Shown piece after piece: positions 592 to 18,297 of a DNA stretch of 32,774 nt. Below the pieces are notes generated by a model, which saw nothing but the letters and a program-made list of their open reading frames with translations, ran no database searches and was not told the origin of the DNA. The DNA is taken from contig JAAOII010000113.1 of assembly GCA_015163845.1 (NCBI GenBank), positions 1-32,774 of the forward strand, in the 5' to 3' direction. The position numbers were made by a program, and so were the translations under genes. This stretch comes from Candidatus Portiera sp. Its GTDB lineage: Bacteria > Pseudomonadota > Gammaproteobacteria > CBDBNL01 > JAAOII01. Position 1 is the first letter of the stretch. Each line of letters opens with the position of its first letter.

Positions 592-1326
592 ATGCATAGT
601 TTTATCCGACTGTTCAATAATGACTTTTTAAGCCAGCCGTTAATTGCCAAGCGGAAGGAGATTTGGCGTAATAAAGAAGATGCTCCACGTGAAAAGCTTA
701 TGAAAAAGGGAGTTGAGTTCCTTAGCGACAGTGAACTACTAGCTATTTTTCTAAGAGTTGGTTATAAAGGTAAAAATGTTATGGAATTAGCTCAAGACGT
801 TATTGCCACCAAGGGCTTATCTTGGCTACTCACTGCAAACTCTAAGGAGTTCTGTGACTATAAGGGCTTGGGACCGTCACACTATGTGCAATTACGTGCG
901 GTTATGGAGTTGGCAAGACGCTATCTAGAGGAGGTAATGTTACGTCAGTCCGAATCACTTAACTCACCAACTAAGATAAAAAACTTCCTCTGCCACCGCT
1001 TAGGTGATAGCACACGGGAAGTATTTGCTTGCCTGTTCATGGACAACAAGAATAGAGTTATAGAATACAAAGAACTTTTCAGTGGCACCATTGACTCTGC
1101 CAATGTCTATCCACGCGAAATCATTCGCCATGCTTTGCAAGTAAATGCTGCTGGTTTGGTGGTAGTTCATAACCATCCTTCAGGATCGGTCAAACCAAGT
1201 GTGGCAGACAAGCATATAACTGGAGTCATAAAGGATGCTTGCGAATTGATGGAAATTCGCCTGCTGGATCATATAATCGTTAGTGGCAACAAGTCATTAT
1301 CCTTCCTAGAAGACGGCCTTTTATAG
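592..1326 (+). CDS. radC: RadC/YicR-family JAMM-motif protein
   Basis: Conserved N-terminal PREKLMKKGVEFLSDSELLAIFLRVG and C-terminal JAMM motif VVHNHPSGSVKPSVAD. The ORF opens at 562, overlapping the recN stop; ATG 592 is an equally plausible start. Confidence 0.9.
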   Translation: MHSFIRLFNNDFLSQPLIAKRKEIWRNKEDAPREKLMKKGVEFLSDSELLAIFLRVGYKGKNVMELAQDVIATKGLSWLLTANSKEFCDYKGLGPSHYVQLRAVMELARRYLEEVMLRQSESLNSPTKIKNFLCHRLGDSTREVFACLFMDNKNRVIEYKELFSGTIDSANVYPREIIRHALQVNAAGLVVVHNHPSGSVKPSVADKHITGVIKDACELMEIRLLDHIIVSGNKSLSFLEDGLL

Positions 1327-1372
1327 TCCCCCTTATATAAATATCTAGTACAAATATTTAGAGCATCTTTTA

Positions 1373-2953
1373 ATGGTTAATAATAAAGTAAGAAGAAAGA
1401 CCAACTGGAAACCATATAATGAAGGGGAAAAGCATGATAAGTCCATGTGGGATTCTCCCAAAGATGGACCTCAAGTTCTTTATAAACAATTACCTATAGT
1501 ACTTCAAGTATTAAAGCAACATCACAATAAAAACAAACATACTATTTTTAAAGAAATTAATAAAAAATTTGAAGCAGAAGGAGCATCATCTCCGAGATTG
1601 AGTGATAGCAGAATAGGTACAATAATAGCACTTGGAAGAAAGTTAGGCCTAATCAAAAAGGAGAACTTTGAATTAACAAATGCTGGAATCACGAGCATCA
1701 GTGCAGATTATCTAAGCATAATTCAACAACAATATATTAAGTTGGTCTTTGATAATCCTATATTAAAGAATAGCAACGACATAGAAATATTTCCAATAAT
1801 TGCCCTAATGGAAATATTAATAGAAACAAATGATCTCAGTATTGAGGAGGTGGCTATCTTCATATTTTCTGAATTAAAAAATAGAGAACAAATACCTGAA
1901 ACGATTAAGAATATCTCTAAATTTAGAAAACTAGATAAAGAGTCACGAGAAGAACTTATTAATGACTTTAAACACACTCACAAGGGAAATATTACATTGA
2001 CTAAGGCATCTAGCGTAACATACTTGTTCAGCAATCTTTCAAGGATAAGTTTATTTTATGTTTATGATAAACGGATTAAGCTATCAAGCACAGATGAAGC
2101 AAAAAAGATTATAGAAAAATATAAAAACAAATCACACTTTAAATTTAAGGATCATGAACTGCTATATTGGGATGCCTATTATGGCAATACAGCAATTCAT
2201 TTTCCGCCTAAGGAAGTAACTTTTAAATTTGCAGATAATAATTTTGAGGCATATCTATTAATAAAAAATGATATCTATAAAACAGATCTAATTAAAGTAG
2301 AGGATGAAATAACTATTCCTGTTTTTGATGAGCTAACCAACATATTAGAAGTTTATAACTTGCAGTATGAAAATCAGCAATATGTTAAGAAATTTAAACC
2401 CTATGAAATAAAATCCGTAGAATTATTAGCACTTGAATTTAGTTCTCAATACCCCATAGCTGATCTATTAGAGTATTACAAAGGCAGTGAGATTTATCCT
2501 GTTTTGTCTAGGATGCTTCGTTACAAAGAAAGAAATGTAAACTCTAACTTAAGGGGTGGTAGATTTGAAAACTTAGTTTATGAGTTTCTAAAAGAAGGAC
2601 TCACTTCTATGAAGGTTAATTGGAACGGCAGGATTGACAAAGATGGAATAGCTAAACCAGCAACTGGCGGACAATCAGATATAGTGGTAGAAAGCAATGA
2701 GTATTTTTATGTCGTTGAGACAACTACGATGAAGCACCGCTCAGGCATAGAAAGTGCTGAGACATTCAGTTTATCTAGACATGCCAAGGAGTTTCTTGAT
2801 AAAGGTAAAAAAGTTAAGATAGTGCTCATCGCCCCGGTAAAATATCAATCTATAACTAATGATATGGAGCGGATGGTTTCTAATTTAGGAATAGAATATC
2901 AGAGTATTGATATAGACGAATTAATTAGCAGCCACGGCAAAATTTTCATCTAG
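1373..2953 (+). CDS. Putative type II (IIS-like) restriction endonuclease, possibly AlwI-like family
   Basis: A 526-aa Lys/Asn/Ile-rich ORF, convergent with the adjacent methylase gene and overlapping its 3' end by 33 bp. The C-terminal ~130 aa has a PD-(D/E)XK-like pattern (GGQSDIVVE ... YVVETTTMK). Size plus two companion methylases recalls AlwI/MlyI/PleI-type enzymes. The family call is from memory and was not searched. Confidence 0.55.
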   Translation: MVNNKVRRKTNWKPYNEGEKHDKSMWDSPKDGPQVLYKQLPIVLQVLKQHHNKNKHTIFKEINKKFEAEGASSPRLSDSRIGTIIALGRKLGLIKKENFELTNAGITSISADYLSIIQQQYIKLVFDNPILKNSNDIEIFPIIALMEILIETNDLSIEEVAIFIFSELKNREQIPETIKNISKFRKLDKESREELINDFKHTHKGNITLTKASSVTYLFSNLSRISLFYVYDKRIKLSSTDEAKKIIEKYKNKSHFKFKDHELLYWDAYYGNTAIHFPPKEVTFKFADNNFEAYLLIKNDIYKTDLIKVEDEITIPVFDELTNILEVYNLQYENQQYVKKFKPYEIKSVELLALEFSSQYPIADLLEYYKGSEIYPVLSRMLRYKERNVNSNLRGGRFENLVYEFLKEGLTSMKVNWNGRIDKDGIAKPATGGQSDIVVESNEYFYVVETTTMKHRSGIESAETFSLSRHAKEFLDKGKKVKIVLIAPVKYQSITNDMERMVSNLGIEYQSIDIDELISSHGKIFI

Positions 2954-3637
2954 TGCAGCGACACGTTCTTTAGCGTCTTGGCAGAATTGTTCATCTAATT
3001 CAAAACCTATATATTCCCTACCTAAAGCTTTACAGGCAACTGCCGTAGTCCCATAGCCCATAAAAGGATCTAAAACAATACTCTTATCGGGGAAGCATTG
3101 CAAAATATCAGTTACCATCTTTTCTGGGAATTGTCTTGTGTGGTTAACATTTGTCCCCACTGGCCTCCATTCTTGCCAGTTAAAGACATCACTATGCTTT
3201 ATTATGTTATTTAATTTAGTAGTTTTTAATTTGGTTAGCCAATAGATCCTTTCAGTGAAAGGATAAAATCTGATTTTATCAAAATTTTGACTTCTATTTA
3301 TCCAAACTATTTCCTGCTTAATTATAAAGTCGGTCTTGAATAACCACTCATAAGGAGAAATTTGTTTGCCATCTTTTATCCTGTTTTTATGATTATAAAA
3401 AAATGAGCCGTCATCTTTTAGTACTCTAAATATTTCTTGAATAACTTTAATTTGCCACTCTTGATATTCATTTTCTGGCATAGCATCTTTATATGATGAA
3501 TGGAGTTTAGTGCCTGTATGATGGTTATTCCCTAAGTTGTAGGGGGGAGATGTTATGGCAAGGTCTATGGAATTATCTTTGAGTTGTCCAAGACCTTCAA
3601 GAACATCAAGGCAGTAGATATCATTTGTTGCTAACAC
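2921..3637 (-). CDS. DNA methyltransferase, N6_N4_Mtase family, beta-class motif order (N4-C or N6-A)
   Basis: Motif IV DLAITSPPYNLG lies near the N-terminus and SAM motif I VLDPFMGYGTTAVA near the C-terminus. The GTG start overlaps the upstream methylase stop by 7 nt (GTGTTAG). Confidence 0.9.
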   Translation of the reverse strand: MLATNDIYCLDVLEGLGQLKDNSIDLAITSPPYNLGNNHHTGTKLHSSYKDAMPENEYQEWQIKVIQEIFRVLKDDGSFFYNHKNRIKDGKQISPYEWLFKTDFIIKQEIVWINRSQNFDKIRFYPFTERIYWLTKLKTTKLNNIIKHSDVFNWQEWRPVGTNVNHTRQFPEKMVTDILQCFPDKSIVLDPFMGYGTTAVACKALGREYIGFELDEQFCQDAKERVAALDENFAVAAN

Positions 3638-4857
3638 TTCTGCAAATATACTAAGCTTTCTCTTAATTTTTCTGAGTTAGTGATCTTTTTTTGTTGCTGA
3701 GGGCTAGTATTCAATTTCCGGGCGACATCTAATTTGATGCACTTAAACCCCATACTCTCTCCTATGACGGCTAATATTTCATCCGTTGGTATAACAACTC
3801 TACCATAAGCAGAATTACCTACGATAATAACACAATGCCCTCCCTTTTTTAATACCTTGTGAACATTGCGAAGGACCTTCTGCATATCTGAGAAATAACT
3901 ATCCACCATGTCTGGTATCTTTGGACTCCAAATATCTTGATGTCTAATAGCAGTGATATATTTCTGTATCATCTGCATGCCTTTTTCTGGCACAATTTCT
4001 TTGTTTAGATGGGAGGTTAAGCTGCTATTTCTAATATTCTTTAGATCAGAGTATGCATTTACAAAACCACCAAACCATAATTCAACCTTATATATCTCTG
4101 TATAATCAAAACAATTTAAGTAAGGCGGGGAAAAGACACTAAGTGCTGCAGAGTTTTTGTGTTCTTCTAGGAAATCACTAGCAATATTTCTACAATCTCC
4201 AAATACCACTTTATTGTTAGAATCTGCAACTTGACCATCTACTATATCTTCCAGCATTTGTTCAACTTTATTAGAGAATGCTGTAATAAATTGCTCTGGT
4301 TTCTTCCTTGGCGGATATCTCAAACCATTACCATCCTTCTTAGCAAAACCACATCTCTCAAGAACCGATAAAAATGCGATCAAGTAAAAGTTTCTAATTT
4401 TCTCATCTCGTATTCCTAAGATAACTTGGCGATATCTTAAAATACTATCTAATTGACTGCCAAAAACTTTATCAGCAATAGACAATCCAACTCTCTGAAC
4501 CTTTTGGACTTTGGATGATCTGTTTTTGATGATACTTTTATATTTATAAATCTTCTGGATACTTGATGAATCATAAGTGGCAATCTTTGTTTTTGTAAGA
4601 GTATAAAGGAATGGATTGACTTCAAACCCTAAAAAGTTTATGCCTTTTTCCTTTGCTGTTAACAAAGTAGTTCCGCACCCACTGAAAGGATCAAAGACCT
4701 TACCTTCTTTTATTTTTAACTCGCTCATCAAGTCGCTTACTAATTTAGAGGAATAACCTTCCTTTAAATTAAACCAACTATGGATTGGCAAATTCATATT
4801 TCCTGAAAAATTAACTAGGTTGCCATACTCGGGCTGGGAAGTGATAGGGATGTGCAT
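3631..4857 (-). CDS. DNA methyltransferase, N6_N4_Mtase family, alpha-like motif order
   Basis: Motif I VFDPFSGCGTTLLTA comes first, then a spacer of roughly 180 aa, then motif IV LSVFSPPYLNCFDY. It is a 408-aa protein in the same operon as the 238-aa methylase. Confidence 0.85.
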   Translation of the reverse strand: MHIPITSQPEYGNLVNFSGNMNLPIHSWFNLKEGYSSKLVSDLMSELKIKEGKVFDPFSGCGTTLLTAKEKGINFLGFEVNPFLYTLTKTKIATYDSSSIQKIYKYKSIIKNRSSKVQKVQRVGLSIADKVFGSQLDSILRYRQVILGIRDEKIRNFYLIAFLSVLERCGFAKKDGNGLRYPPRKKPEQFITAFSNKVEQMLEDIVDGQVADSNNKVVFGDCRNIASDFLEEHKNSAALSVFSPPYLNCFDYTEIYKVELWFGGFVNAYSDLKNIRNSSLTSHLNKEIVPEKGMQMIQKYITAIRHQDIWSPKIPDMVDSYFSDMQKVLRNVHKVLKKGGHCVIIVGNSAYGRVVIPTDEILAVIGESMGFKCIKLDVARKLNTSPQQQKKITNSEKLRESLVYLQKC

Positions 4858-5184
4858 ATTAAATAATATTATAGGTCATTTTTTCTGATTTTGATTCTTT
4901 CAGGTTTTCTATTGGTATGAAAAGTGAGAGTAACTTGATAGTGAGTGAGAAAGATGCCCTAAATAGACGAAATTAAAAATTTTGATTTTATTGCAAAAAT
5001 ATTCAATTTACGACCTAAATAAATATTTTATGCTAATCTGCAATTAATGATATTAGTTAATTTAGAAAACATTAGAGATTGAAATGGACGTTATAACTCC
5101 ACGCATTCTTGGTATAACAAACGTTAAAAATGTTTTCTTAACAATCTTATATCATATTATTATTTACAAACAAGGAAATTAATT

Positions 5185-6735
5185 ATGACAGAACATGAAA
5201 ATAAATTAGAATCTAAAGATTTTATTAATATAGCAGGAAAAGGATTCACTGAAGATTATAGTGTAGCAGATTTCAATGCTATAGGAGCATCTATGATAGG
5301 TGATGGTAGTAGCATTGATAGGGCAGATTGGAGTATAGCAGCAGGATATACCTATTTGGGACAGTTCATAGATCATGATATAACCCATACAAATGGTGAA
5401 GAAAATAGAAATACTGCTCAGTTGGACTTAGATAGCTTATACCCCAAGAATGAAAACGACACAACAATAAAAGATGGTAAATTCCTCTTGGGAGATCATG
5501 GAGGTTCAAATATAGGAGGAGACCTTCGCCGCGATATTAATTTCCATGCAATGATTCCAGACCATCGTAACGATGAGAATATTATTATTGCATCTATTCA
5601 TCTAACTTTCCAAAAGTTTCATAATATTTTAGTTAATCAAGGGAATAGTTTTAATCAGGCAAAAGTAATAGTTATGGATCATTACCATGCAATAGTAGCA
5701 TATGATTTTGTCCGTAAGTTAACTGATCTTAACCAGGACCAAATATCTAATATTATTGATAGACAAGAAAAAAGATTTATCTACACAGAAGATATGGTGA
5801 GAATGAACGGAGGTCCTTTCATACCTACAGAGTTCTCTGGTGCTTGTTATCGTTTTGGCCATACCATGGTGCGTTCAAACTATGATTTCAATGATAATTT
5901 TTCGAAGGGCACTCTTTCCAAACCTCCTCTATTCTTTGGCTTTCCAGGTGGAAGACCTGACTTCAATCTTGTTGGAAGTGATGGAAAACCTTTCCCAACA
6001 AGTGATGCGCGCAGCCATAAAATCACTTCTGTATGGGTATTATCTGGTACTGCAACTTTGTTCGAAGGTGGTAAAAAACTTCAGTCATTAGAAAGGTTTT
6101 TTGAAAAAGGAAAGAATAAAAGAAATTCAGCCGGAGTTATTGATACAAATTTATCCGATGTGATGGGAAATCTTCAAGTAAGTAAGACAGCAAAGAAAGA
6201 CACGGTCTTAACGGATATTGATAAGTTTAATATAGCATCAAGAAATTTACAAAGAGGACAATCTCTTGGATTAGTTAGTGGTCAAGAATTTGCCCAATTC
6301 GTAAAAGAAAAAAGTAAGGGAAAGGTAAACCCATTGTCTGATGAAAAAATACAAGAGGTTATAGAAAACTTAGCTTCTAGATCTGAAGAAAAAATTTCTG
6401 ATGCATTAAAGAAAAAATTAATATCAAATACTCCTCTATGGTTATATACCTTGGCAGAGGCAGAAGCAGCAGAGGTAGGAACAGGAGCACGATTAGGTCC
6501 CATAGCAAGTAGATGTGTTGCCGAAGTGATATTAGGACTCTTAATGGATGATACTATGAATGTTGACTCCATTAGGAATACTAGTCAATCTAGAAAGAAT
6601 GCTCCATATAATCTAAATGAGCCAAATGAGCCAAATAAATGGAAATCTTCTATAATTCAAAACAAAGAAGCAAGAGATATAGAAATGCTTGATATCATTA
6701 AATTTGTCAATAAAAATCATAATAAGGTGCTCTAA
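5185..6735 (+). CDS. Animal-type heme peroxidase (peroxidase-cyclooxygenase superfamily), no signal peptide
   Basis: Distal-site motif GQFIDHDITHT, the Arg/Glu motif PDHRNDEN followed by IHLTFQKFHN (GDxRxNE...HN pattern), and proximal-His motif ACYRFGHTMV. The N-terminus MTEHENKLESKDF is hydrophilic. An AAGGAA Shine-Dalgarno sequence lies 8 nt upstream of the ATG. Confidence 0.85.
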   Translation: MTEHENKLESKDFINIAGKGFTEDYSVADFNAIGASMIGDGSSIDRADWSIAAGYTYLGQFIDHDITHTNGEENRNTAQLDLDSLYPKNENDTTIKDGKFLLGDHGGSNIGGDLRRDINFHAMIPDHRNDENIIIASIHLTFQKFHNILVNQGNSFNQAKVIVMDHYHAIVAYDFVRKLTDLNQDQISNIIDRQEKRFIYTEDMVRMNGGPFIPTEFSGACYRFGHTMVRSNYDFNDNFSKGTLSKPPLFFGFPGGRPDFNLVGSDGKPFPTSDARSHKITSVWVLSGTATLFEGGKKLQSLERFFEKGKNKRNSAGVIDTNLSDVMGNLQVSKTAKKDTVLTDIDKFNIASRNLQRGQSLGLVSGQEFAQFVKEKSKGKVNPLSDEKIQEVIENLASRSEEKISDALKKKLISNTPLWLYTLAEAEAAEVGTGARLGPIASRCVAEVILGLLMDDTMNVDSIRNTSQSRKNAPYNLNEPNEPNKWKSSIIQNKEARDIEMLDIIKFVNKNHNKVL

Positions 6736-6816
6736 AACAAACCAGATGGGATAATTAATAGAGAAACTTTATTCTTACAATATATTTAACTAGCTGTTTA
6801 TTTGTAATAAAAAGGT

Positions 6817-7329
6817 ATGAATAACACAGAATCATTATTAAATAATAATCCTAAGGTTAAGCTACTCTGGAAGCATGAGTCAAAGCTCATGAGTTTATGC
6901 GGGAAACCGATGGGTGGTAACAAGGGGAAGTTCATGTCCATTTATGCTACTACAATAGGCAATAAAATATACATGCCAAAGGGTTGGTGGGATATTGTTG
7001 ATGAGCAGCAAAGACTTATTTTATTACGTCACGAATTAATCCATGTTAAACAAATGGCAAAATACTCGGTTCCTATTTTCTTTTTCTTGTATATATTTGT
7101 TCCATTTCCTATAGGCATTGGATACTTTCGTGCCAAGTTTGAAAAAGAGGGCTATGCTGAAACCTTGAAAGCACAGTATGAATATTGGGGTGAGAGTAGC
7201 ATCACGTCTATTGAATGCCGGGAATGGATTATTGAACAGTTTGTTGGATCTGCTTATGGGTGGATGTGGCCTTTCAAGAAGTCCATGCACAAATGGTATG
7301 ATAAAACTATCCAAGAAATTCTACATTAG
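6817..7329 (+). CDS. DUF4157-like HExxH zinc-metallopeptidase-fold protein with one central hydrophobic segment
   Basis: YATTIGNKIYMP ... LILLRHELIHVKQ matches the remembered DUF4157 pattern (T.G..I.. then LxHELxHVxQ). A hydrophobic stretch VPIFFFLYIFVPFPIGIGYF follows, then EKEGYAE as a possible third ligand. No signal peptide. Confidence 0.5.
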   Translation: MNNTESLLNNNPKVKLLWKHESKLMSLCGKPMGGNKGKFMSIYATTIGNKIYMPKGWWDIVDEQQRLILLRHELIHVKQMAKYSVPIFFFLYIFVPFPIGIGYFRAKFEKEGYAETLKAQYEYWGESSITSIECREWIIEQFVGSAYGWMWPFKKSMHKWYDKTIQEILH

Positions 7330-7412
7330 TGTTTGTTGATAGCATTATGAATATAGCATAGCTTTGCAATAGCAACGAATTACAATTAATAAGCAACCAA
7401 GAGGAAATTACT

Positions 7413-7850
7413 ATGCTAAATAAACTAATAGAACCCTTAGCCAAAGGAGTATTTGGCTTGATAGACAAACTTCATTTGTCTAAGCAGGAGAAGTTACAGT
7501 TCAAAGAAAGAATGCAATCAATGGTGCTGGATCATCAAAAGGAAGTAGAGAAAACTCTCCAAGAGCAAGCTCGTTCTACTGCTGATATCATAGTAGCTGA
7601 AGTTAAGCAAGATGATAAGTATACTAAAAGAGCCAGACCAACAGTTATATATGTAGGTATTATATTAATCATCTGGGGCTATGTTATTGCCCCTCTACTC
7701 AATGGTTATTATGGTGCAGGCATTGTAATTGAAATACCTGATTTCTTTTGGCATTCTTGGGCTGCTATTGTTGCAGTTTATGCTGGTGGCCGTAGTTATG
7801 AAAAGAGTAAGAAACTAATTCCTGGTTCAGATTCAGAAGGAGTGGGATAA
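7413..7850 (+). CDS. Holin-like membrane protein (resembles the GTA_holin_3TM family)
   Basis: A charged coiled N-terminal half (QEKLQFKERMQSMVLDHQKEVEKTLQEQARSTAD) is followed by KRARPTVIYVGIILIIWGYVIAPLL and further hydrophobic helices. The stop overlaps the amidase start (TAATG). AGAGGAA Shine-Dalgarno upstream. Confidence 0.5.
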   Translation: MLNKLIEPLAKGVFGLIDKLHLSKQEKLQFKERMQSMVLDHQKEVEKTLQEQARSTADIIVAEVKQDDKYTKRARPTVIYVGIILIIWGYVIAPLLNGYYGAGIVIEIPDFFWHSWAAIVAVYAGGRSYEKSKKLIPGSDSEGVG

Positions 7851-8542
7851 TGGTTGATAAGATAGTTAACGTAAGCAAACTTAATATTAGAAATTATCCC
7901 AAAGGATCTTTGCAGGGATATATCAAATCTGGAACTGAAGTAGAGGTATTTGAAGAAAAGAGTGGTTGGTCAAAGATAAAAACAACTGCATGGGTAATGA
8001 GCGATTATCTGCGCGATCTTCCAGAATCAGAAACTGTGAGTGGTGAAGTTATAAAGAGAATTGTAATCCACTGCTCAGCTACAAAACCAGATTATAATGC
8101 AACTGCAGAGGATATTAAGAAATGGCATACCGACCCCGTATTCAAAGGTGGACGAGGTTGGTCTCGTGCTGGCTATCATTGGGTAATAGAACGTGAACCA
8201 TGTCGTGTGGTGCCGTTGGTAGCTATGAATGATGACGAAGTTTTAGAATCATGGGAAATATCTAATGGAGTTAGAGGGTATAACAAGGACTCCATCCACG
8301 TCTGCTATGTTGGTGGATTAAATGAAAAGGGACGTCCCGCTGATAATATAACTCCTGAGCAAACAGAGGAATTAGTTGCATTATTGCAATCTTTAGTTCA
8401 AACTCGCCCAAACTTACAGCACATTGTTGGGCACACTGATCTTTACCCACTAAAGGCATGTCCATCATTTGATGTTGCAAAGTTTCTACATAAGAATCTT
8501 TCGCAGGATTTGGCTAAGAAGTATGCTTTACCTTTAAGATAG
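7850..8542 (+). CDS. N-acetylmuramoyl-L-alanine amidase (Amidase_2/PGRP/T7-lysozyme type) with N-terminal SH3 domain; endolysin-like
   Basis: SH3-like LNIRNYPKGSLQGYIKSGTEVEVFEEKSGWSKIKTTAWV. Amidase_2 motifs IVIHCSAT, AGYHWVIE, IHVCYVGG and IVGHTDLYPLKACPSFD (His/His/Cys zinc site pattern). Confidence 0.85.
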   Translation: MVDKIVNVSKLNIRNYPKGSLQGYIKSGTEVEVFEEKSGWSKIKTTAWVMSDYLRDLPESETVSGEVIKRIVIHCSATKPDYNATAEDIKKWHTDPVFKGGRGWSRAGYHWVIEREPCRVVPLVAMNDDEVLESWEISNGVRGYNKDSIHVCYVGGLNEKGRPADNITPEQTEELVALLQSLVQTRPNLQHIVGHTDLYPLKACPSFDVAKFLHKNLSQDLAKKYALPLR

Positions 8543-8571
8543 CTGAAAATAACTGAAAATAGTTTAAGAAA

Positions 8572-8817
8572 ATGCAGTCATTAATACAACTATTACAAAA
8601 AAGAACACTGGACAATAAATATTTCCCGCAGATAGTTTACTCTGGTTGTGCTCTGGCAATATACACCTTTATGCTAATACCAATATCAGGTCTAGCCGGA
8701 TTAACTCTTCCAGCAATAGCAGTAGCTGAGTCGCAGATATTCTGGGCTTCATGGTCTGTTTTAGTTGGTGGTGGCTCATTGCTGCGCTCTAAAATAAAAA
8801 TAAAAACATATGCTTAA
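8572..8817 (+). CDS. Small two-TM membrane protein (possible lysis accessory or antiholin-like)
   Basis: An 81-aa ORF with two hydrophobic helices (IVYSGCALAIYTFMLIPISGLAGL; IFWASWSVLVGGGSLL) and a basic tail, 30 bp downstream of the amidase. Function is inferred from position only. Confidence 0.4.
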   Translation: MQSLIQLLQKRTLDNKYFPQIVYSGCALAIYTFMLIPISGLAGLTLPAIAVAESQIFWASWSVLVGGGSLLRSKIKIKTYA

Positions 8818-8951
8818 ACTCAAATCAAAACCGCCATTTTTCAGAGGCATATTTATGCTGCCATGGCAATTATCATTATCCAAATTATTGGTTATTGCTG
8901 GTGCAGGAAACATACATAACATATTTAATTTAACCAACAAAAGATAACACA

Positions 8952-9914
8952 ATGCCAAAACAATCAACAATGACTAATAGATTTATGAATTATCCTATCA
9001 TAAAATGGATCATTGATAAATTTGATAAAATTAAGAAGAGGCCTTGGTTTATCAATTCTGCGCTTACCGCAGCATTATTGTGCTGGTTAACTTTAGTATT
9101 TTACTTCCCCAATGTTGTTAAATATGATAAAGAATTAGATGGTAATAAAGGTGATATTTTTAAATGGATTAGAGTGATCATAGCTGGAATATTTGTGATT
9201 TTTATACCCTTAATACTTTCTGAAAAAGGAACACGTCCAAAAAGCAAAATATTGACTAAGGAAAACTATATGCTGGTTTTAGTGCTTACTATAATCTTTG
9301 TAGTATTAACATTAGTTAGTGAGAATATTAGTGCTATTGTAGGGGCACTGCAAAATAGTAAGAATTGGCTGAGAGATGTTTTTTTTGAACTGGTTAATAA
9401 TGAGAAGGGACTTGCTCCATTTGCATGGACAACATTATTCTTAGTTGCAGTGGCTATCGCAGTTTTATCACACACTTTTTGGTGGTTTTTTACTGGGATT
9501 ATAGGAATTATTGTAGCAGCATTCATATTAATTGTTCCTCCAGTTGTTGAAGGTATTCAGCCCAATGAAATGAATTGGGTGATAAACATATTAGTTATAT
9601 TAGCGAGTGGGGTGGTGTTACCTTTCATGGTGGTTAAAGAAATAACAGAAAAAGACAAGATTAAAATGAGCGGGAGTACATTAGTTTCTATTGGCATAAA
9701 ATCTCTTGCTGTGCCCGCCTTGGTGTTTACTTTCATTTCTACTAGTCCTAATTTTAATAATGACACTCCTCAGATAGAATCTAATACAACGATAGACAAT
9801 TCTACTGGAAGTATAGAGAGTATAGAAAAGATTATAGATAACCATACTTATGCCTTTCAAGGACAGTTCCATATTGAGTTTAATAGAGATTTAAAGGACA
9901 GAATTATTATCTGA
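8952..9914 (+). CDS. Polytopic inner-membrane protein of unknown function
   Basis: A 320-aa ORF with at least 6 long hydrophobic segments and a hydrophilic Asn/Ser/Thr-rich C-terminal ~60 aa. No recognisable motif. Confidence 0.5.
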   Translation: MPKQSTMTNRFMNYPIIKWIIDKFDKIKKRPWFINSALTAALLCWLTLVFYFPNVVKYDKELDGNKGDIFKWIRVIIAGIFVIFIPLILSEKGTRPKSKILTKENYMLVLVLTIIFVVLTLVSENISAIVGALQNSKNWLRDVFFELVNNEKGLAPFAWTTLFLVAVAIAVLSHTFWWFFTGIIGIIVAAFILIVPPVVEGIQPNEMNWVINILVILASGVVLPFMVVKEITEKDKIKMSGSTLVSIGIKSLAVPALVFTFISTSPNFNNDTPQIESNTTIDNSTGSIESIEKIIDNHTYAFQGQFHIEFNRDLKDRIII

Positions 9915-10038
9915 TGGCACACGACATCTAGTTAAACACTGGTTTATTAACCTAGTTGTATTAGTTTAATAACATTATTATGAACCAAGATTTTGAGCTT
10001 TTAACCTTGTTTATATTATAAAAAATAAGAGTTAGATT

Positions 10039-11112
10039 ATGAGTGATTTTTTTGAGATTGATTTTTTAAATACTGGGTCAAGGCAAAGCGGCGATGCCAT
10101 TACGTTAAGATATTCAATTAATGGCAAGATTAGAATCCATGTGACCGATGGTGGATTTCAAGATACTGGGAATTTGATAATAGAACATATAAACGAACAT
10201 TATAATTACCCAAGTCGTATTGATGCTATTATAGTAACTCATTCTGACAATGATCATACGGGAGGATTAGCTAAATTATTTGATGAATATGAAATTGGTG
10301 AGCTTTGGATGTTAAGACCATGGCAATATGCTGAAGAATTAATTGCAAGATTTCCTCGGTTTACTTCTATTGATAACCTTAAAAAACGAATGAAAGACAT
10401 TTACCCTAATATAGCTACCTTGGAAGAACTTGCTGAAAAAAATAATGTGGCAATTATGGAACCATTCCAAAACTCTAAGATTGGATATTTTCATGTCTTG
10501 GCACCGTCTAAGGAGCATTATCTTGATCTTGTGGTTGAATCTGATAAAACACCAGAAGGGACTACTAAATCCATTTCTGAGGAGATGGGACAAATTGTCA
10601 ATAAAATTAAAAGTTTGATCATCTTTGCATGGGGGGTGGAACATTTTCCAGAAGATGATACGAGTCCCGAAAATAATATGAGCGTGATTCAATATGCCTA
10701 TCTATGTGAGAAGAAAGTTTTGCTAACTGGGGATGCAGGACGTGCCGCTCTTAATGAGGCGGCTGACTTTGCGCCAAGTACGGGGCTAGAACTCCCGAAT
10801 AGCTTTCACTGCATACAAGTACCGCATCATGGTTCAAGACACAATGTATCAACTGAAGTTTTAAACCGTTGGCTAGGCCTTGTATCTAAAGTTAATTACG
10901 AGGGTAACCTATCAACTGCAATTGTCAGTGCTGCAAAGGAAGATAAAGATCATCCAAGAAAGGCAGTTGTTCGGGCTTTTAATCACAGAAGAGCAAAAGT
11001 AATGTCTACAGCAGAATGTAGTGTGCGAAATCAGAGTCCCAATGCTCCAACTCGTGAAGGGTGGAGACCAGCAACCCCTCTTCCATATCCAGAAGCTCAA
11101 GAGAAATTGTAG
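10039..11112 (+). CDS. Metallo-beta-lactamase-fold hydrolase, ComEC C-terminal-domain-like
   Basis: HxHxDH-type motif IIVTHSDNDHTGG, then LLTGDAG and QVPHHGSRHN as in the ComEC/Rec2 MBL domain. No TM segments. Confidence 0.75.
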   Translation: MSDFFEIDFLNTGSRQSGDAITLRYSINGKIRIHVTDGGFQDTGNLIIEHINEHYNYPSRIDAIIVTHSDNDHTGGLAKLFDEYEIGELWMLRPWQYAEELIARFPRFTSIDNLKKRMKDIYPNIATLEELAEKNNVAIMEPFQNSKIGYFHVLAPSKEHYLDLVVESDKTPEGTTKSISEEMGQIVNKIKSLIIFAWGVEHFPEDDTSPENNMSVIQYAYLCEKKVLLTGDAGRAALNEAADFAPSTGLELPNSFHCIQVPHHGSRHNVSTEVLNRWLGLVSKVNYEGNLSTAIVSAAKEDKDHPRKAVVRAFNHRRAKVMSTAECSVRNQSPNAPTREGWRPATPLPYPEAQEKL

Positions 11113-11218: not shown

Positions 11219-11291
11219 GGGGCCATAGCTCAGCTGGGAGAGCATCTGCTTTGCAAGCAGGAGGTCGTCGGTTCGATCCCGTCTGGCTCCA
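11219..11291 (+). tRNA. tRNA-Ala (anticodon UGC)
   Basis: GGGGCCATAGCTCAGCTGGGAGAGCATCTGCTTTGCAAGCAGGAGGTCGTCGGTTCGATCCCGTCTGGCTCCA folds as a cloverleaf by hand. It has the G3:U70 Ala identity pair, anticodon loop TTTGCAA and T-loop GGTTCGATCC. CCA is not encoded. Confidence 0.95.
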
Positions 11292-12500: not shown

Positions 12501-13433
12501 CTATGCTGAGAAGTTTTTTTTCTTGGCGGCTTCTCTGGCAGCTAATTTTTCTCTGTGCACCTTCAATAATGTTTTCACCCACGGAGGAGTAGGAGGGATA
12601 GGGGCAAATTTAACACCTTCTGCCTTCCATTTTTTTGTCAATGCAGTCTGATCCGCTCTATATTTTTCAGGATCTTTACGCCTTTCTTCATCCTTCTTTG
12701 CCCGCCACCGCCGAGATTCTATCATCACTTCAGAACTTTCAATGGCATCTATCAATCTTTGTTTTTCCTTTTTGTCCATATTATCCCAAGATTCAGTATT
12801 GAACAATACATACTTATGTTTCGTGGTTTTCATGGATTTTATGGCTTTCGTAGATTTCATAGTGTCAATATTATACAACATTCCTTTATCTTGGACCTGG
12901 TGTTTACTTAATTCATGCCTAATAAGTGCCAGATAATAATTTGAACACTGCTTTGCTGTACATAATATAGGCACCTCATGGCCCTGTTGCAGAATTATTC
13001 TTATCATGTCTTGCATATTCGGTTCATTAACTAGATCTTTCATATTCCAAGTTACAAGATAATCAATTCCATAAAAGACCGCGCTTGCTAAAATTAGAGC
13101 ATCATTGCCTGCTTTTGGTCTAAACACTCCTTCATCCATAAACAAGCCAGCAAGTTCTTCAATTTCTGGAACAACTTCTAATACCTCCATGTCCTGTGTA
13201 AGTTTTATGCGGTTTTTAGCATTTTCTTTATTACCGTCAGAAATTTCATCATAAGCGGTCTCAGAAATTACTAGCTTTAATCCCTGCGTAGATTGCACCA
13301 ACTCCTGCACATCTTTCAAGATTTTATGGGATGAGCTTTTCAGCATTTCCATTTCCTCATTATCTAACTCTCTGGGAGCTGCTTCAGCATATCCTATGAT
13401 ATTGGCATCGAATGCTATTGATATTTTATTCAT
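12501..13433 (-). CDS. PIN-like domain protein with a long basic C-terminal extension
   Basis: Acidic residues are spaced as in PIN nucleases: IAFDANIIGY (Asp9), VISETAYDE, AGNDALILASAVF, and YLVTWNMKDL. The C-terminal ~120 aa is Lys/Arg/Glu-rich with APIPPTPPW. There is no adjacent antitoxin-sized ORF. Confidence 0.5.
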   Translation of the reverse strand: MNKISIAFDANIIGYAEAAPRELDNEEMEMLKSSSHKILKDVQELVQSTQGLKLVISETAYDEISDGNKENAKNRIKLTQDMEVLEVVPEIEELAGLFMDEGVFRPKAGNDALILASAVFYGIDYLVTWNMKDLVNEPNMQDMIRIILQQGHEVPILCTAKQCSNYYLALIRHELSKHQVQDKGMLYNIDTMKSTKAIKSMKTTKHKYVLFNTESWDNMDKKEKQRLIDAIESSEVMIESRRWRAKKDEERRKDPEKYRADQTALTKKWKAEGVKFAPIPPTPPWVKTLLKVHREKLAAREAAKKKNFSA

Positions 13434-13654: not shown

Positions 13655-15019
13655 ATGCGTAAAAGTAACTTTCATTTTCTTGACATTGAACGTGGTGATC
13701 CTCCTCTAATCCCTATGGACGAGCGGAGGGGCTCGTTTAAAGAAATTCATAGCGAATATCAGCAGGATAAGGCAGCAGTTCAGGCAGAGAGATGCCTAGA
13801 TTGCGGTATTCCTTACTGTGAATGGGCATGCCCCGTGCATAATTATATCCCCAACTGGCTTGAGCTAGTGGCTAAAGGGCAGATATTCCGCGCCGCAGAA
13901 CTTTGCCATGAGACCAACAGTTTGCCTGAAGTATGTGGCAGAATTTGTCCTCATGACCGCCTATGCGAAGGTGCCTGCACTCTAAATGATGGCTTTGGAG
14001 CTGTCACTATAGGTTCAGTAGAAAAACACATAACTGATACTGCTTTTGCTTTGGGTTGGCGACCTGATTTATCAAAAGTAAAGCCAACTGGTAAGAAAGT
14101 TGCCATAATAGGAGCTGGTCCTGCTGGTCTTGCCTGTGCCGACATAATGCTACGTGGCGGCGTCAAAGCAACCGTTTTTGATAAGTATCCTGAGATTGGT
14201 GGATTACTTAACTTCGGCATTCCGCCATTTAAACTAGACAAGCAAGTTCTTGATCTACGGCGTAAAATTTTTGAGGAAATGGGTGCAGAGTTTAGGATGA
14301 ATACTACAATCGGTAAAGACATAATGATGGAAGAATTATTAGCAGAGTATGATGCACTATTCTTGGGCATGGGCACTTACAAATATGTAGATGGTGCTTT
14401 ACCCGGTATGGACTTGAATAATGTTTACATGGCATTACCTTTTTTGATTGGTAATATCAATAAGGTGCGAGGATATGATGAGGGAACTGAGTTTATTAAT
14501 ATGGAGAATAAGCGGGTGATTGTATTGGGGGGTGGCGATACAGCTATGGATTGTAACCGCACCAGTATTAGACAAGGAGCAAGATCTGTCATTTGCTGTT
14601 ATCGTCGCAATGAGTCAGATATGGCTGGTTCGCTCAAAGAAGTAAAGAATGCTCGAGAAGAAGGAGTCATTTTTAGATTTAACTTACAACCAACCGAGAT
14701 ATTAGAGAGTGCTGGTGGGATATCAGTCAAGTTCCAATATACGGGAGAAGAAAAACAAGGCAAAGATTCCGAAGAGCAAATTATTGAAGCAGATGCTGTG
14801 ATACTTGCTTTTGGTTTTCGTCCTAATCCACCAGAATGGTTGAAAGAGCATAAAATATCCATTCACGAGGATGGTCGGGTTAAGGTGAATGACAGCCACC
14901 AAACAGACAATCCTAAGATATTTGCAGCAGGAGATATGGTCAGAGGCGCCGATCTGGTTGTAACCGCCATAGCTGATGCCCGCGAAGCAGGACAGCAAAT
15001 GATTAATTATATTAAATAA
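13655..15019 (+). CDS. gltD: Glutamate synthase small-subunit (GltD)-like NAD(P)H-dependent FAD/Fe-S oxidoreductase
   Basis: Two Cys clusters CLDCGIPYCEWACP and CGRICPHDRLCEGAC. Dinucleotide folds VAIIGAGPAGLACA and VIVLGGGDTAMDC. C-terminal IFAAGDMVRGADLVVTAI. No gltB lies next to it. Confidence 0.85.
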   Translation: MRKSNFHFLDIERGDPPLIPMDERRGSFKEIHSEYQQDKAAVQAERCLDCGIPYCEWACPVHNYIPNWLELVAKGQIFRAAELCHETNSLPEVCGRICPHDRLCEGACTLNDGFGAVTIGSVEKHITDTAFALGWRPDLSKVKPTGKKVAIIGAGPAGLACADIMLRGGVKATVFDKYPEIGGLLNFGIPPFKLDKQVLDLRRKIFEEMGAEFRMNTTIGKDIMMEELLAEYDALFLGMGTYKYVDGALPGMDLNNVYMALPFLIGNINKVRGYDEGTEFINMENKRVIVLGGGDTAMDCNRTSIRQGARSVICCYRRNESDMAGSLKEVKNAREEGVIFRFNLQPTEILESAGGISVKFQYTGEEKQGKDSEEQIIEADAVILAFGFRPNPPEWLKEHKISIHEDGRVKVNDSHQTDNPKIFAAGDMVRGADLVVTAIADAREAGQQMINYIK

Positions 15020-15049
15020 TAATACAAAATTTGTATTAAAATATTAAGC

Positions 15050-15817
15050 GTGAAGAAAGATTCCGTAGCCCACATAATAGTAGTTACCTTAGCAGTATGT
15101 TTTGTCTGTTCAATTGCTGTATCTATGGCAGCAGTCCTGTTACGCGATCAACAAAACATCAATAGTGAATTAGCAAGAAAACGTAATATTCTAATAGCGG
15201 CTAATGTCATTGATCCACAAAAAGTAACTCCAGCTGAAGTAGAAGATATATTCAGTCGCGCTGAAGTTAAATTGGTTGATTTACAGGAAGGAAGTTTCAT
15301 TGATGAGGCAGATTCTCCCATAGACATTTCCACCTATGACCAAAGGAAAGCTGAGGGTGATCCGCAGTTATCCATGGATCTTAACTCCAAACAGGACATT
15401 GCTTCCATCAGCAGACGTGAGAGATATTCATTGATTTACTATATCAATAATGGAGATAAGACCTCTGCTATTTTCCCCATACGCGGCTATGGCTTATGGT
15501 CAACATTACGAGGATATTTGGCATTGAGCACTGCTGACTACAATACCATTGTTGGAGTTACATTTTACGAACATGCTGAAACTCCCGGCTTGGGTGGTGA
15601 GGTGGATAATGAGGATTGGAAAAATCAGTGGCGTGGTAAAAAATTATTCAGTGATGATGGCAGTTCTACTATTCAGCTAACACGCACTGCCTCTGGTTCT
15701 GACAATCAAGTAGATGCTCTTTCAGGAGCAACTCTTACATCTAATGGAGTTAATAACTTGATTAACTTCTGGTTTGGTGAATTGGGATTTGGCGATTTAA
15801 TTAATAAACTTAAATAA
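15050..15817 (+). CDS. nqrC: Na+-translocating NADH:quinone oxidoreductase subunit C
   Basis: Collinear with Vibrio NqrC as I remember it: one N-terminal TM helix, YDQRKA, YYEHAETPGLGGEV and the FMN-attachment site LSGATLTSNGV. GTG start. Confidence 0.9.
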   Translation: MKKDSVAHIIVVTLAVCFVCSIAVSMAAVLLRDQQNINSELARKRNILIAANVIDPQKVTPAEVEDIFSRAEVKLVDLQEGSFIDEADSPIDISTYDQRKAEGDPQLSMDLNSKQDIASISRRERYSLIYYINNGDKTSAIFPIRGYGLWSTLRGYLALSTADYNTIVGVTFYEHAETPGLGGEVDNEDWKNQWRGKKLFSDDGSSTIQLTRTASGSDNQVDALSGATLTSNGVNNLINFWFGELGFGDLINKLK

Positions 15818-15834
15818 ATTTGATAATAAGCAGT

Positions 15835-16974
15835 ATGAAATATATAAAAGATAAATTGACTAGGGATATATTAGAACCAGCTGGCATCAAGATAAATGGC
15901 AAAGAGGTCTGGGACCCTCAAATTAAAAACGACAAAATATTCAGCAGAATTGCAAAACAGCAATCCTTAGGTCTTGGCGAGGCATACATGGATGGCTGGT
16001 GGGAATGTAATAATTTGGAAGAGTTCTTTTATAGAATACTTTCATCATCAATGAACGACAAAGATAATAATCTAGACGGGCGCCCCAAGGGATTTTTTGA
16101 AGGACTGATATATCGTTATATGCCGCTTCTAGTAAACCAGCAGACCTTCAAACGTTCCACAAAAGTTGCCTATGAACATTATGATGTTGGCAATGATGTT
16201 TATGACTTAATGCTCGGCAAGGATATGCAATATACTTGTGCTTACTGGCAAGAATCCGAAACCCTTGACGAAGCACAACATAATAAATTAGATCTTATTT
16301 GCCGTAAACTTAAACTTAAACCAGGCATGGAAGTTTTAGAATTGGGTGGTGGTTTTGGCGGTTTAGCTCGGTTCATGGCAAAGAACTATGGCTGTTCTGT
16401 TACTGTCTATAACATTGCTCGCGAGCAAATTAAACGTGCGCAAGAGTTAACTGCAGGGCTAAAAGTCAAGATCATTGAGTCGGACTATCGTAATGCCATG
16501 GGAGTTTATGATCGTGTCGCTGCTATAGGTCTGGCTGAACATGTGGGTTTCAAGCATTACCGGACTCTAATGGAAAAGGCCTATTCATGCTTGAAAGATA
16601 AAGGATTATTTATCATTCAGACCAATGGTTCCAATAATACCATGCACCACTATGAGCCGTGGATGGAAAAGTATATTTTTCCCAACAGCATGATCCCCTC
16701 AGCTAAACAACTATCTATTGCTAGTGAAGGATTGTTTATGATGGAGGACTGGCATGTGATGAGCGGCAACTACTACAAGACCTTAATGTCTTGGTATGAC
16801 AATTTTGTCAAAGAGTTCCACAAGATCAAAGATAAATATGATGAAAGATTCTATAGAATGTGGTGTTACTATTTGTTGTTTTCTGCCGCAAGCCATAGAA
16901 GTCGTAGTGTTCAGTTATGGCAGCTAGTCTTGTCAAAAAACAATGTGGGCGTCCCCTATGTTTCCGGAAGATAA
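15835..16974 (+). CDS. cfa: Cyclopropane-fatty-acyl-phospholipid synthase family (CMAS) methyltransferase
   Basis: LGLGEAYMDGWWEC N-terminal motif, YDVGNDVYDLMLGKDMQYTCAYW, SAM site VLELGGGFGGLARFMA, and IFPNSMIPS. ATG 15835 is preferred over the in-frame TTG 15820 of the ORF track. Confidence 0.9.
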   Translation: MKYIKDKLTRDILEPAGIKINGKEVWDPQIKNDKIFSRIAKQQSLGLGEAYMDGWWECNNLEEFFYRILSSSMNDKDNNLDGRPKGFFEGLIYRYMPLLVNQQTFKRSTKVAYEHYDVGNDVYDLMLGKDMQYTCAYWQESETLDEAQHNKLDLICRKLKLKPGMEVLELGGGFGGLARFMAKNYGCSVTVYNIAREQIKRAQELTAGLKVKIIESDYRNAMGVYDRVAAIGLAEHVGFKHYRTLMEKAYSCLKDKGLFIIQTNGSNNTMHHYEPWMEKYIFPNSMIPSAKQLSIASEGLFMMEDWHVMSGNYYKTLMSWYDNFVKEFHKIKDKYDERFYRMWCYYLLFSAASHRSRSVQLWQLVLSKNNVGVPYVSGR

Positions 16975-16998
16975 GAAGAATAATAATATAATACAACT

Positions 16999-17673: not shown

Positions 17674-17681
17674 AGATTATT

Positions 17682-18293: not shown

Positions 18294-18297
18294 AAAA

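Follow-up and report, generated by a model that had tools for sequence, protein, structure and literature searches.

An intact short heme peroxidase gene upstream of an orphan lysis cassette in an uncultured gammaproteobacterium

The peroxidase gene and its product

The DNA considered here, referred to below as the window, is a stretch of 32,774 nucleotides (nt) from Candidatus Portiera sp. (assembly GCA_015163845.1, contig JAAOII010000113.1), which carries a gene for a heme peroxidase of the peroxidase-cyclooxygenase superfamily, situated between a restriction-modification (R-M) system and a small lysis cassette. Its open reading frame (ORF), the only long frame at this locus, starts with ATG, follows a Shine-Dalgarno-like motif and encodes 516 amino acids (aa); coordinates of all features are collected in Table 1. 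Judged from the sequence, the ORF is an intact peroxidase gene with all predicted heme- and calcium-binding residues in place. Searching with profile hidden Markov models (HMMs) returned Pfam family PF03098 (An_peroxidase), whose cut-off of 25 bits was exceeded with a score of 42.1 (E 5.8e-11), while neither NCBIfam nor PHROG gave a match, no defence family of PADLOC-DB 2.0 was hit at E ≤ 0.001, and a single-sequence search of the PDB was barely informative (best E 0.27). According to a crude hydropathy scan, the protein contains neither a hydrophobic N-terminus nor a transmembrane (TM)-like 19-mer. The genome to which the window belongs (G000) has a ferrochelatase gene, so that heme synthesis should be possible in the host.

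An earlier reading of the bare letters by a model (the original prediction) had proposed a heme peroxidase of this superfamily, 516 aa long, devoid of a signal peptide and carrying the motifs GQFIDHD, RNDE and YRFGH. This assignment was borne out by the HMM match and by profile comparison with solved structures, the predicted fold and residue conservation as described below; ORF and hydropathy scan agree on length and missing leader, and all three motifs lie where they had been placed.

Fold and relationship to known peroxidases

When a profile built from 120 homologues of the peroxidase was compared with solved structures, the best match was CyanoPOX from Cyanobacterium sp. TDX16 (PDB 8S6C; E 5.8e-21), aligned over nearly the full length (positions 76-475). 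Eosinophil peroxidase (EPO) as well as lactoperoxidase (LPO) and myeloperoxidase (MPO) were matched at E 1e-11 to 1e-7, alpha-dioxygenase at 3e-4 and DUOX1 at 5e-4. The structure prediction that had been proposed as a check likewise gave the peroxidase-cyclooxygenase fold: the AlphaFold2 model computed on the 120-homologue alignment reached a mean predicted local distance difference test score (pLDDT) of 82 and a predicted template modelling (pTM) score of 0.89, with a low-confidence region at aa 241-300. Foldseek comparison with the PDB placed 8S6C first (E 6e-10), followed by MPO, LPO, DdPoxA, DUOX1 and cyclooxygenase-2 (COX-2), and all of the top 50 matches were superfamily members.

CyanoPOX, the best match by profile as well as by structure, is also a bacterial single-domain enzyme of similar size (528 aa), for which iodide is the best substrate and whose heme is bound non-covalently in the crystal (PMC11776367). 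Its residues Asp80, His81, Arg199, Glu202, Arg291, His294, Asn376 and Arg379 correspond to Asp63, His64, Arg128, Glu131, Arg223, His226, Asn354 and Arg357 of the window protein, while identity in the structural alignment amounts to only about 17%. Besides, Asn77 of CyanoPOX is replaced by Gln60, glutamine being the residue found in the mammalian enzymes; CyanoPOX contains a segment of about 35 residues after the distal motif that is lacking in the family of the window peroxidase, and the latter has loop insertions of its own at aa ~255-300 and ~466-486. With mammalian LPO, MPO and EPO, the protein shares the fold, the Gln-x-x-Asp-His-Asp and Arg-x-x-Glu motifs, the proximal His with its Asn partner and the calcium loop. 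In contrast to these enzymes, it is bacterial and has no signal peptide, and the profile matches to them cover mostly the central helices.

Short single-domain peroxidases of this kind, characterised by X-R-X-X-E, by a distal His and by His paired with Asn on the proximal side, have been described from cyanobacteria, proteobacteria and actinobacteria as Families 5 and 6, the short bacterial peroxicins and primordial peroxidases, including LspPOX of Lyngbya, and their physiological role was stated to be unknown (Zamocky et al. 2015, PMC4420034). The relatives of the window peroxidase show the same taxonomic spread, whereas the peroxidase itself sits in a rare divergent subclade with 36-48% identity to its nearest relatives. 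RbMPO of Rhodopirellula baltica, likened here by its published activity alone, provides a functional precedent for an antimicrobial role: it oxidises iodide, thiocyanate, bromide and chloride and kills E. coli (PMC10204396).

The wider family turned out to be large. Among 8,000 scored candidates of a word-indexed search, 2,525 were relatives, nearly all of 440-570 aa, all with PF03098, as seen in each of the 120 homologues listed, and, where named in the source at all, called "heme peroxidase family protein". Exhaustive HMMER searching of 1.84 billion protein representatives clustered at 50% identity gave 3,618 members at E ≤ 1e-3, 2,334 at E ≤ 1e-10 and 123 at E ≤ 1e-30. Hosts include Bradyrhizobium, Mesorhizobium, Actinoplanes, Nocardia, Nostocales, Acidobacteriota and Myxococcota; rhizobial megaplasmids also carry members, and checking of 600 pattern hits in species genomes left 535 verified relatives. 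Sec-like N-termini are absent from all 120 aligned members and a Tat-like motif occurs in a single one; a Tat signal (RRKFL) is clear in one relative from the Gammaproteobacteria. Five members from Actinoplanes and metagenomes (P0025, P0034, P0037, P0098 and P0120) carry LysM C-terminal to the peroxidase domain and likewise have no leader, an unusual combination for a module that binds peptidoglycan and a hint that export within the family may be non-classical.

The peroxidase is thus one member of a large, known and almost unstudied bacterial family, and not a new kind of system. Against this background, the label "eukaryote-like (animal-type)" of the original prediction mirrors no more than the name of the Pfam family: every relative with a name comes from bacteria, and the closest structure from a cyanobacterium. 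Compactness and lack of a leader, also noted there, are the family norm (mostly 440-570 aa; 119 of 120 without signal peptide). That bacterial members are sparsely characterised proved correct, with few of them studied (LspPOX, CyanoPOX, RbMPO) among 2,334 representatives. As to its placement, the peroxidase probably belongs to the branch of short peroxicins and primordial peroxidases.

Viral sources were covered as well. No match to the peroxidase was obtained by tblastn in a phage genome collection of 50,697 records, and its structural matches in BFVD are giant-virus proteins only; there, an Orpheovirus heme peroxidase and a Yasminevirus alpha-dioxygenase share the fold. Distant members (25-30% identity) are present on 24 viral-classed IMG/VR contigs (L099-L122), most of them of high GC content and one a giant-virus metagenome-assembled genome (GC 0.25). 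An origin as phage gene or phage auxiliary gene was rejected, as neither PHROG nor the phage genome collection yielded a match.

Conservation of the active site

Counted over the 120 homologues, Asp63, Asp65, Arg128, Arg223, His226 and Asn354 are conserved in every sequence, and Gln60, His64 and Glu131 in 119. All nine residues are present in the window protein, so proper alignment revealed no loss of heme-ligand residues; such a loss would have spoken against the original assignment. In the loop TAQLDLDS, which we take to be the calcium loop by analogy with MPO and LPO, Thr77 is kept in 102, Asp81 in 110 and Asp83 in 119 homologues, next to the invariant Asp65 of the distal motif; Arg357 is retained in 107. 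Both residues that could form heme ester links, Asp63 and Glu131, are accordingly present and nearly invariant. The position of the methionine that forms the sulfonium link in MPO (Met243) is taken by Asn132, and by Asn in 119 of the 120 homologues, which sets the protein apart from MPO-type enzymes; no sulfonium link is expected. The putative proximal pair, His226 and Asn354, aligns to CyanoPOX His294 and Asn376, and the X-R-X-X-E motif is found together with distal His and distal Gln, following the published motif definition (PMC4420034).

One subclade member (P0005, locus L208) has the distal His replaced by Gln (GQFVDQD) in an otherwise intact site and may represent a non-catalytic variant or one with altered chemistry.

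Divergence between two alleles

Only one close allele of the gene was available, on a 13-kb metagenome contig (L001) that covers the same locus with 91% nucleotide identity. Divergence is distributed unevenly: the methylase is 98% and the HExxH protein 96% identical, the peroxidase only 81%. Within the peroxidase, aa 123-227 and 401-516 are near-identical even at synonymous sites, with 0.03 synonymous substitutions per site (dS), while the two blocks in between and at the N-terminus diverge fast (Table 1). Pooled, the latter have a dS of 0.21 and a ratio of nonsynonymous to synonymous rates (dN/dS) of 0.78, compared with a dN/dS of 0.09 in the methylase (Fisher p 2e-6). Nevertheless, both alleles are full length, every catalytic residue is the same, and the six indels in the gene (3, 3, 6, 3, 39 and 12 nt) are all multiples of three. 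Because the indels are in frame and the catalytic residues unchanged, the reading frame and active site appear to be under selection.

Divergence between window 3571-6962 and L001 1-3436 is patchy, with 0 mismatches per 100 nt in certain stretches and 14-24 elsewhere; two of the divergent patches fall in the 408-aa methylase (4071-4270, 4471-4670), and another takes up all of the intergenic region 4871-5184. We read the pattern as probable recombination mosaicism combined with weak constraint on peripheral loops. Targeted hypermutation by a diversity-generating retroelement was rejected, given that the changes are transition-dominated without adenine bias and that the mosaic reaches into methylase and intergenic region. 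Positive selection on the variable blocks was unsupported as well, with dN/dS values of 0.68-0.86 and not above 1.

The 9-bp duplication near the C-terminus noticed earlier is real, its extent being slightly different from the previously given ~6613-6630 (6615-6636, Table 1), and 100 shuffles produced no such repeat. It lies in a C-terminal insertion with NEPNEPN that is absent from other subclade members. However, the local repeat instability deduced from it could not be upheld, as the repeat is identical in L001, the only close allele. The actual length polymorphism is a 24-bp repeat (GRPNFTID) in the low-confidence loop of the second block, present in 3.5 copies in L001 and in one copy in the window.

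Distribution and horizontal acquisition

The window peroxidase, its near-copy P0002 (81% identity) and twelve further proteins (36-48% identity) form a monophyletic subclade of 14 with a Shimodaira-Hasegawa-like approximate likelihood ratio test (SH-aLRT) support of 100. This subclade accounts for 3 of the 50% representatives in the 1.84 billion proteins and is rare and divergent. Scanning of metagenomes with the subclade alignment recovered mostly the general soil family and no new subclade contexts.

The gene's host, an uncultured gammaproteobacterium, has a small genome of about 2 Mb (G000 measures 1.28 Mb and is 72% complete; relatives have 1.9-2.3 Mb) and probably leads a host-associated or marine life. 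Its NqrF is 66-68% identical to the nearest named proteins, from Alcanivorax, Kistimonas, Halomonas and Endozoicomonadaceae. The peroxidase is absent from the genomes G001-G005, i.e. two more genomes from its genus, two from its family and one from its order, and any peroxidase homologue was found in only 4 of 60 relatives, none of which groups with the window protein. Because the gene is missing in close relatives, the scattered homologues do not group with it and the island has a GC content of 0.33 compared with about 0.40, it is best regarded as a horizontally acquired, strain-specific accessory passenger.

Neighbourhoods of the other subclade members are unrelated to each other and often of mobile or conflict type, comprising MobC/NikA, a Y1 transposase, BRCT with GT4-conflict, a type I secretion system (T1SS), Ser/Thr kinases and a Rieske protein; the member at L096/L097 adjoins SLATT_2, PDC-S31 and an HNH nuclease. 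Conserved partners were sought by ORF clustering at 80 genome loci and by Pfam annotation of 127 immediate neighbours at 78 loci, and no family occurred in more than three of the neighbours, on which grounds a family-wide operon partner was rejected. Ser/Thr kinase genes recur near about 11-15 loci, lie within ~2 kb at roughly 9-12 of the 80 genome loci and, three in number, precede a subclade member in L005; they are the sole recurrent theme, and a weak one.

The island and the lysis cassette

The gene resides in an AT-rich, variable island, with a GC content of 0.33-0.35 over positions 1001-7000 compared with 0.39-0.45 in the housekeeping part of the window; the GC profile together with Pfam, PHROG and PADLOC matches thereby confirmed a location beside defence and lysis genes. 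From left to right, the window contains the recN C-terminus, radC, a type II restriction endonuclease (REase) and two methyltransferases (MTases), the methylases being divergent from the peroxidase gene, then the peroxidase and a gene for a 170-aa HExxH protein. These are followed by a 3-TM holin, an SH3-amidase, an 81-aa two-TM holin-like protein, a 320-aa membrane protein and a metallo-beta-lactamase (MBL)-fold hydrolase, and finally by tRNA-Ala, SNase, a PIN-like gene and the nqr genes.

Table 1 Features in and around the peroxidase gene of the window
Feature	Position	Strand	Basis and remarks
Type II R-M system: REase 1373-2953 (+), MTases 2921-3637 (-) and 3631-4857 (-)	1373..4857	mixed	PADLOC REase_II 1.8e-36, MTase_II 5e-42 and 7e-72
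Shine-Dalgarno-like AAGGAA	5172..5177	+	7 nt 5' of ATG; direct sequence reading
Heme peroxidase gene, single-domain, short bacterial type	5185..6735	+	ORF, Pfam PF03098, AlphaFold2, Foldseek, family profile
Fast-diverging block 1	5185..5550	+	aa 1-122; dS 0.23, dN/dS 0.68; catalytic residues inside unchanged
Distal motif GQFIDHD: Gln60, Asp63 (potential heme ester link), His64 (distal His), Asp65 (Ca ligand)	5359..5379	+	aa 59-65; aligned to CyanoPOX GQFLDHD
Putative Ca-binding loop TAQLDLDS: Thr77, Asp81, Asp83, Ser84	5413..5436	+	aa 77-84; by analogy with MPO/LPO
RNDE: distal Arg128, Glu131 (potential second heme ester link)	5566..5577	+	within HRNDEN, aa 127-132
YRFGH: Arg223 (propionate contact in CyanoPOX), proximal His226	5848..5862	+	aa 222-226; aligned to CyanoPOX CYRVGH
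Fast-diverging block 2 with lineage-specific loop insertions	5866..6384	+	aa 228-400; dS 0.20, dN/dS 0.86; indels 3, 39, 12 nt; overlaps aa 241-300
IASRNLQRG: Asn354 (proximal His H-bond partner), Arg357	6232..6258	+	aa 350-358; aligned to CyanoPOX LASLNIQRG (Leu372/Asn376/Arg379)
9-bp tandem repeat, 2.4 copies (NEPNEPN)	6615..6636	+	Tandem Repeats Finder (TRF); 100% matches; in lineage-specific C-terminal insertion
170-aa HExxH protein, weakly DUF4157/eCIS_core-like, one hydrophobic helix	6817..7329	+	81 nt 3' of peroxidase; Pfam below cut-off
Orphan lysis cassette: 3-TM holin 7413-7850, SH3+Amidase_2 endolysin 7850-8542, 81-aa 2-TM holin-like protein 8572-8817	7413..8817	+	Pfam, PHROG
MBL-fold hydrolase, PADLOC candidate defence protein PDC-M48B	10039..11112	+	PDLC04676 E 2e-158, end-to-end; right part of island
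tRNA-Ala	11219..11291		sole Rfam find

All genes from the peroxidase to the 81-aa gene lie on the plus strand, separated by successive gaps of 81, 83, -1 and 29 nt, the holin starting 678 nt 3' of the peroxidase stop codon, and no terminator-like site was found between them. Strand and short gaps allow co-transcription; they do not show it. Scans for promoters, terminators and repeats did not rise beyond chance level, and repeats flanking the island were not detected. Phage structural genes were not found anywhere in the window. The trio of holin, amidase and 81-aa gene also occurs in a genome of a different genus (G003; L203 9499-10894), located there between glyQS and rhodanese/RNase R and accompanied neither by a peroxidase nor by phage genes, while G002 contains an amidase remnant only. 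The trio may constitute a domesticated lysis or export module. As a side observation, the sequence of the 81-aa protein is similar to the holin's C-terminal part, with 35% identity over 74 aa.

In the sister contig L001, an insert of 9.2 kb separates the peroxidase from the HExxH gene, with one disrupted and one intact HExxH copy at its ends (3291-3584 and 12868-13090). Encoded in it are an fn3 protein, a protein of 1639 aa, a lipase that is LCAT-like and a DUF5675/Tlde1-like protein, and the gene for the last of these shares 8 nt at its 3' end with the intact HExxH gene. The 1639-aa protein (5434-10353) has no Pfam match and no homologue in the window or the sampled G001 and G002 regions. In G001, G002 and L001, HExxH homologues usually adjoin DUF5675/Tlde1-like genes, and in G002 and G001 the two kinds of gene alternate in arrays. 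Such pairs number about three in G002 (L210 13407-18490), at least one in G001 (L212 9451-14002) and one in L001; G001 additionally encodes a protein that carries an endolysin-type binding domain, along with two PHROG families whose function is unknown. The slot taken by the peroxidase is thus filled elsewhere by cell-envelope-targeting genes, and the HExxH gene looks like either a recombination repeat or a partner (for immunity or processing) of each cargo in a cassette array.

Some further observations concern the remaining genes of the window. The RecN-like ATPase C-terminus (3-578) matches PADLOC mad3 with E 7e-19, which most likely reflects generic SMC-ATPase similarity and not a defence gene, because radC is its neighbour and recN-radC synteny is kept in G001 and G002. 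Upstream of PDC-M48B, the 320-aa polytopic membrane protein (8952-9914) has no match in Pfam, PHROGs or PADLOC. The nqr arrangement (13655-19521) is unusual according to Pfam, with a gltD-like gene first, then nqrC, an inserted cyclopropane-fatty-acid synthase gene and nqrD-E-F.

Proposed function and alternative explanations

From the computed features, i.e. ORF, fold, residues, distribution and pattern of evolution, we infer a catalytic cycle similar to that of LPO. His226, hydrogen-bonded to Asn354, would ligate the heme iron, and distal His64, Arg128 and Gln60 would cleave H2O2 with formation of Compound I. A calcium ion bound by Asp65, Thr77, Asp81 and Asp83 (loop 77-84) would hold the distal helix in place, while Asp63 and Glu131 seem suitably placed for autocatalytic heme ester links as in LPO. 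Compound I could then undergo two-electron reduction by iodide, thiocyanate or bromide, which would be oxidised, or accept single electrons from small aromatic donors; oxidation of chloride is unlikely because the position of the MPO sulfonium Met is Asn132. As no signal peptide is present, the enzyme would act in the cytoplasm or after non-classical release. The most likely activity, as far as residues and profile scores can tell, is H2O2-dependent, LPO-like oxidation of iodide, thiocyanate or bromide. The original prediction had held that the substrate, halide and thiocyanate or fatty acid, cannot be read from the sequence; this holds only in part, as residues and profile scores point to the halogenating rather than the dioxygenase side.

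Taken together, we consider it reasonably probable that the gene, a horizontally acquired passenger, specifies a functional heme b peroxidase with a single domain and LPO-like halide oxidation, belonging to the short bacterial branch. Several points weigh against this interpretation. The Pfam PF03098 alignment spans just one fifth of the protein (aa 123-238), TM-scores to solved structures are around 0.5, and placement in Family 5 derives only from the published description (PMC4420034). Moreover, CyanoPOX with the same Asp and Glu residues crystallised with non-covalent heme (PMC11776367), so that ester links are not assured. The peroxidase has no export signal and no H2O2 source was found nearby. 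Finally, the 56% of codons in the two variable blocks, evolving at a dN/dS of 0.7-0.9, could mean relaxed constraint.

Among the alternatives, a cytoplasmic antioxidant or general one-electron peroxidase, which would remove H2O2 (e.g. host-derived) with small organic donors and without any halogenation, is unlikely. It would be in line with the lack of Sec, Tat and TM signals in a family that is leaderless almost throughout, with the absence of conserved family neighbours, as expected for a stand-alone stress enzyme, and with the classical peroxidase or catalase side activities of CyanoPOX and RbMPO. The gene, however, is absent from all close relatives and can hardly be core stress equipment, the full halogenation-type site including ester-link residues and calcium site is kept, and LysM domains, Tat signals or an adjoining T1SS in some relatives point outside the cell. 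Such an external role is assumed by another, somewhat more doubtful proposal, which leaves the enzymology unchanged and adds a delivery route resembling type 10 secretion: co-expressed with the HExxH, holin, amidase and 81-aa genes, the peroxidase would be released by lysis or holin-endolysin export as an antibacterial or host-directed oxidant effector. Precedents are lysis cassettes that free leaderless toxins, as reported for the chitinases of Serratia and Salmonella and the toxin cocktail of Yersinia entomophaga (PMC10847048, PMC10109510). In its gene content, the locus resembles these systems by combining an orphan holin and a peptidoglycan hydrolase with leaderless candidate cargo genes outside any recognisable prophage; it differs in having an Amidase_2/SH3 endolysin and, where a spanin might be recognised, another holin-like protein, and in that the link between peroxidase and cassette is not conserved in relatives. 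Same-strand arrangement with short gaps and no terminator-like site, the solitary cassette between housekeeping genes in G003, leaderless LysM-bearing family members and, as the main though circumstantial support, the 9.2-kb block in the same slot of the sister strain with its lipase-like, DUF5675/Tlde1-like, fn3 and 1639-aa proteins all fit release by lysis. In its most extended and slightly more speculative form, the peroxidase would be one cargo in a cassette-like effector island, with an HExxH gene after each cargo and a terminal holin-amidase-holin-like module that releases leaderless cargoes by controlled lysis, making it an exported oxidant weapon against competitors or the host. On the other hand, the association of peroxidase and cassette is confined to one lineage: homologues of the holin, the amidase and the HExxH protein encoded in the window are missing from the surroundings of family members at all 80 genome and 24 viral loci (the latter gave one distant match, to the 238-aa methylase of the window), and no lysis family ranks among the 25 commonest in the 127 immediate neighbours. 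Furthermore, the G003 cassette has no adjoining cargo, G002 retains the amidase remnant only, and the T1SS and Tat signals of other relatives indicate that export routes differ.

Still less probable is a decaying, functionless passenger, a moron-like remnant in an eroding island whose frame is open by chance. The elevated dN/dS over more than half of the codons would suit such a remnant, as would the eroded elements in relatives (the G002 amidase remnant and the disrupted HExxH copy of L001) and the rarity of the subclade; decay is contradicted by two full-length alleles with six in-frame indels, by catalytic residues unchanged even in the divergent N-terminal block and by an intact Shine-Dalgarno motif. 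An anti-phage effector, producing oxidants on infection as a single-gene or island system (abortive infection), appears very improbable. Its appeal lies in the surroundings, namely the R-M system and PDC-M48B in the window, PDC-S31, HNH nuclease and SLATT_2 beside the L096/L097 member, GT4-conflict and BRCT beside another, and MobC/NikA or Y1 transposase beside further ones, but for an accessory gene of any kind, such a location carries little weight. Neither PADLOC nor PHROG matches the peroxidase, conserved partners are missing, other subclade contexts (T1SS, Ser/Thr kinases, Rieske) are unrelated, and no paper in the literature library searched links animal heme peroxidases to phage defence. 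A phage-resistance preprint that mentions PF03098 concerns DUF4214 fusion proteins and was set aside as irrelevant to the gene. The least credible of all is a fatty-acid dioxygenase or cyclooxygenase-like oxylipin synthase, to which a near-negligible chance is given. It shares the superfamily fold, COX-2 and alpha-dioxygenase are among the fold and profile matches, and Tyr222 is located on the proximal helix four residues before His226. Cyclooxygenases and dioxygenases carry this Tyr at position -3 from the proximal His, unlike the window protein, where it stands at -4 as in CyanoPOX. Profile scores likewise disfavour alpha-dioxygenase (E 3e-4) compared with CyanoPOX (5.8e-21) and EPO (1e-11), which places the protein outside Family 4, and the retained distal Gln, Asp, His, Arg and Glu with the proximal Asn are typical of peroxidase families and not of Family 4 (PMC4420034).

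Implications

Short bacterial relatives of the animal heme peroxidases are numerous, and few of them, namely LspPOX, CyanoPOX and RbMPO, have been studied. To the enzymology of this group, the window copy adds little. It is a useful case nonetheless, being rare, recently transferred, strain-variable and positioned directly upstream of an orphan lysis cassette. As a compact, disulfide-poor protein, it may also be easy to express and of use as a halide-oxidising biocatalyst. Were the connection with the cassette true, it would point to a way in which leaderless peroxidases, those fused to LysM among them, get out of the cell. The enzyme would then be the first oxidative effector tied to lysis-cassette release, and short bacterial peroxidases would gain a physiological role.

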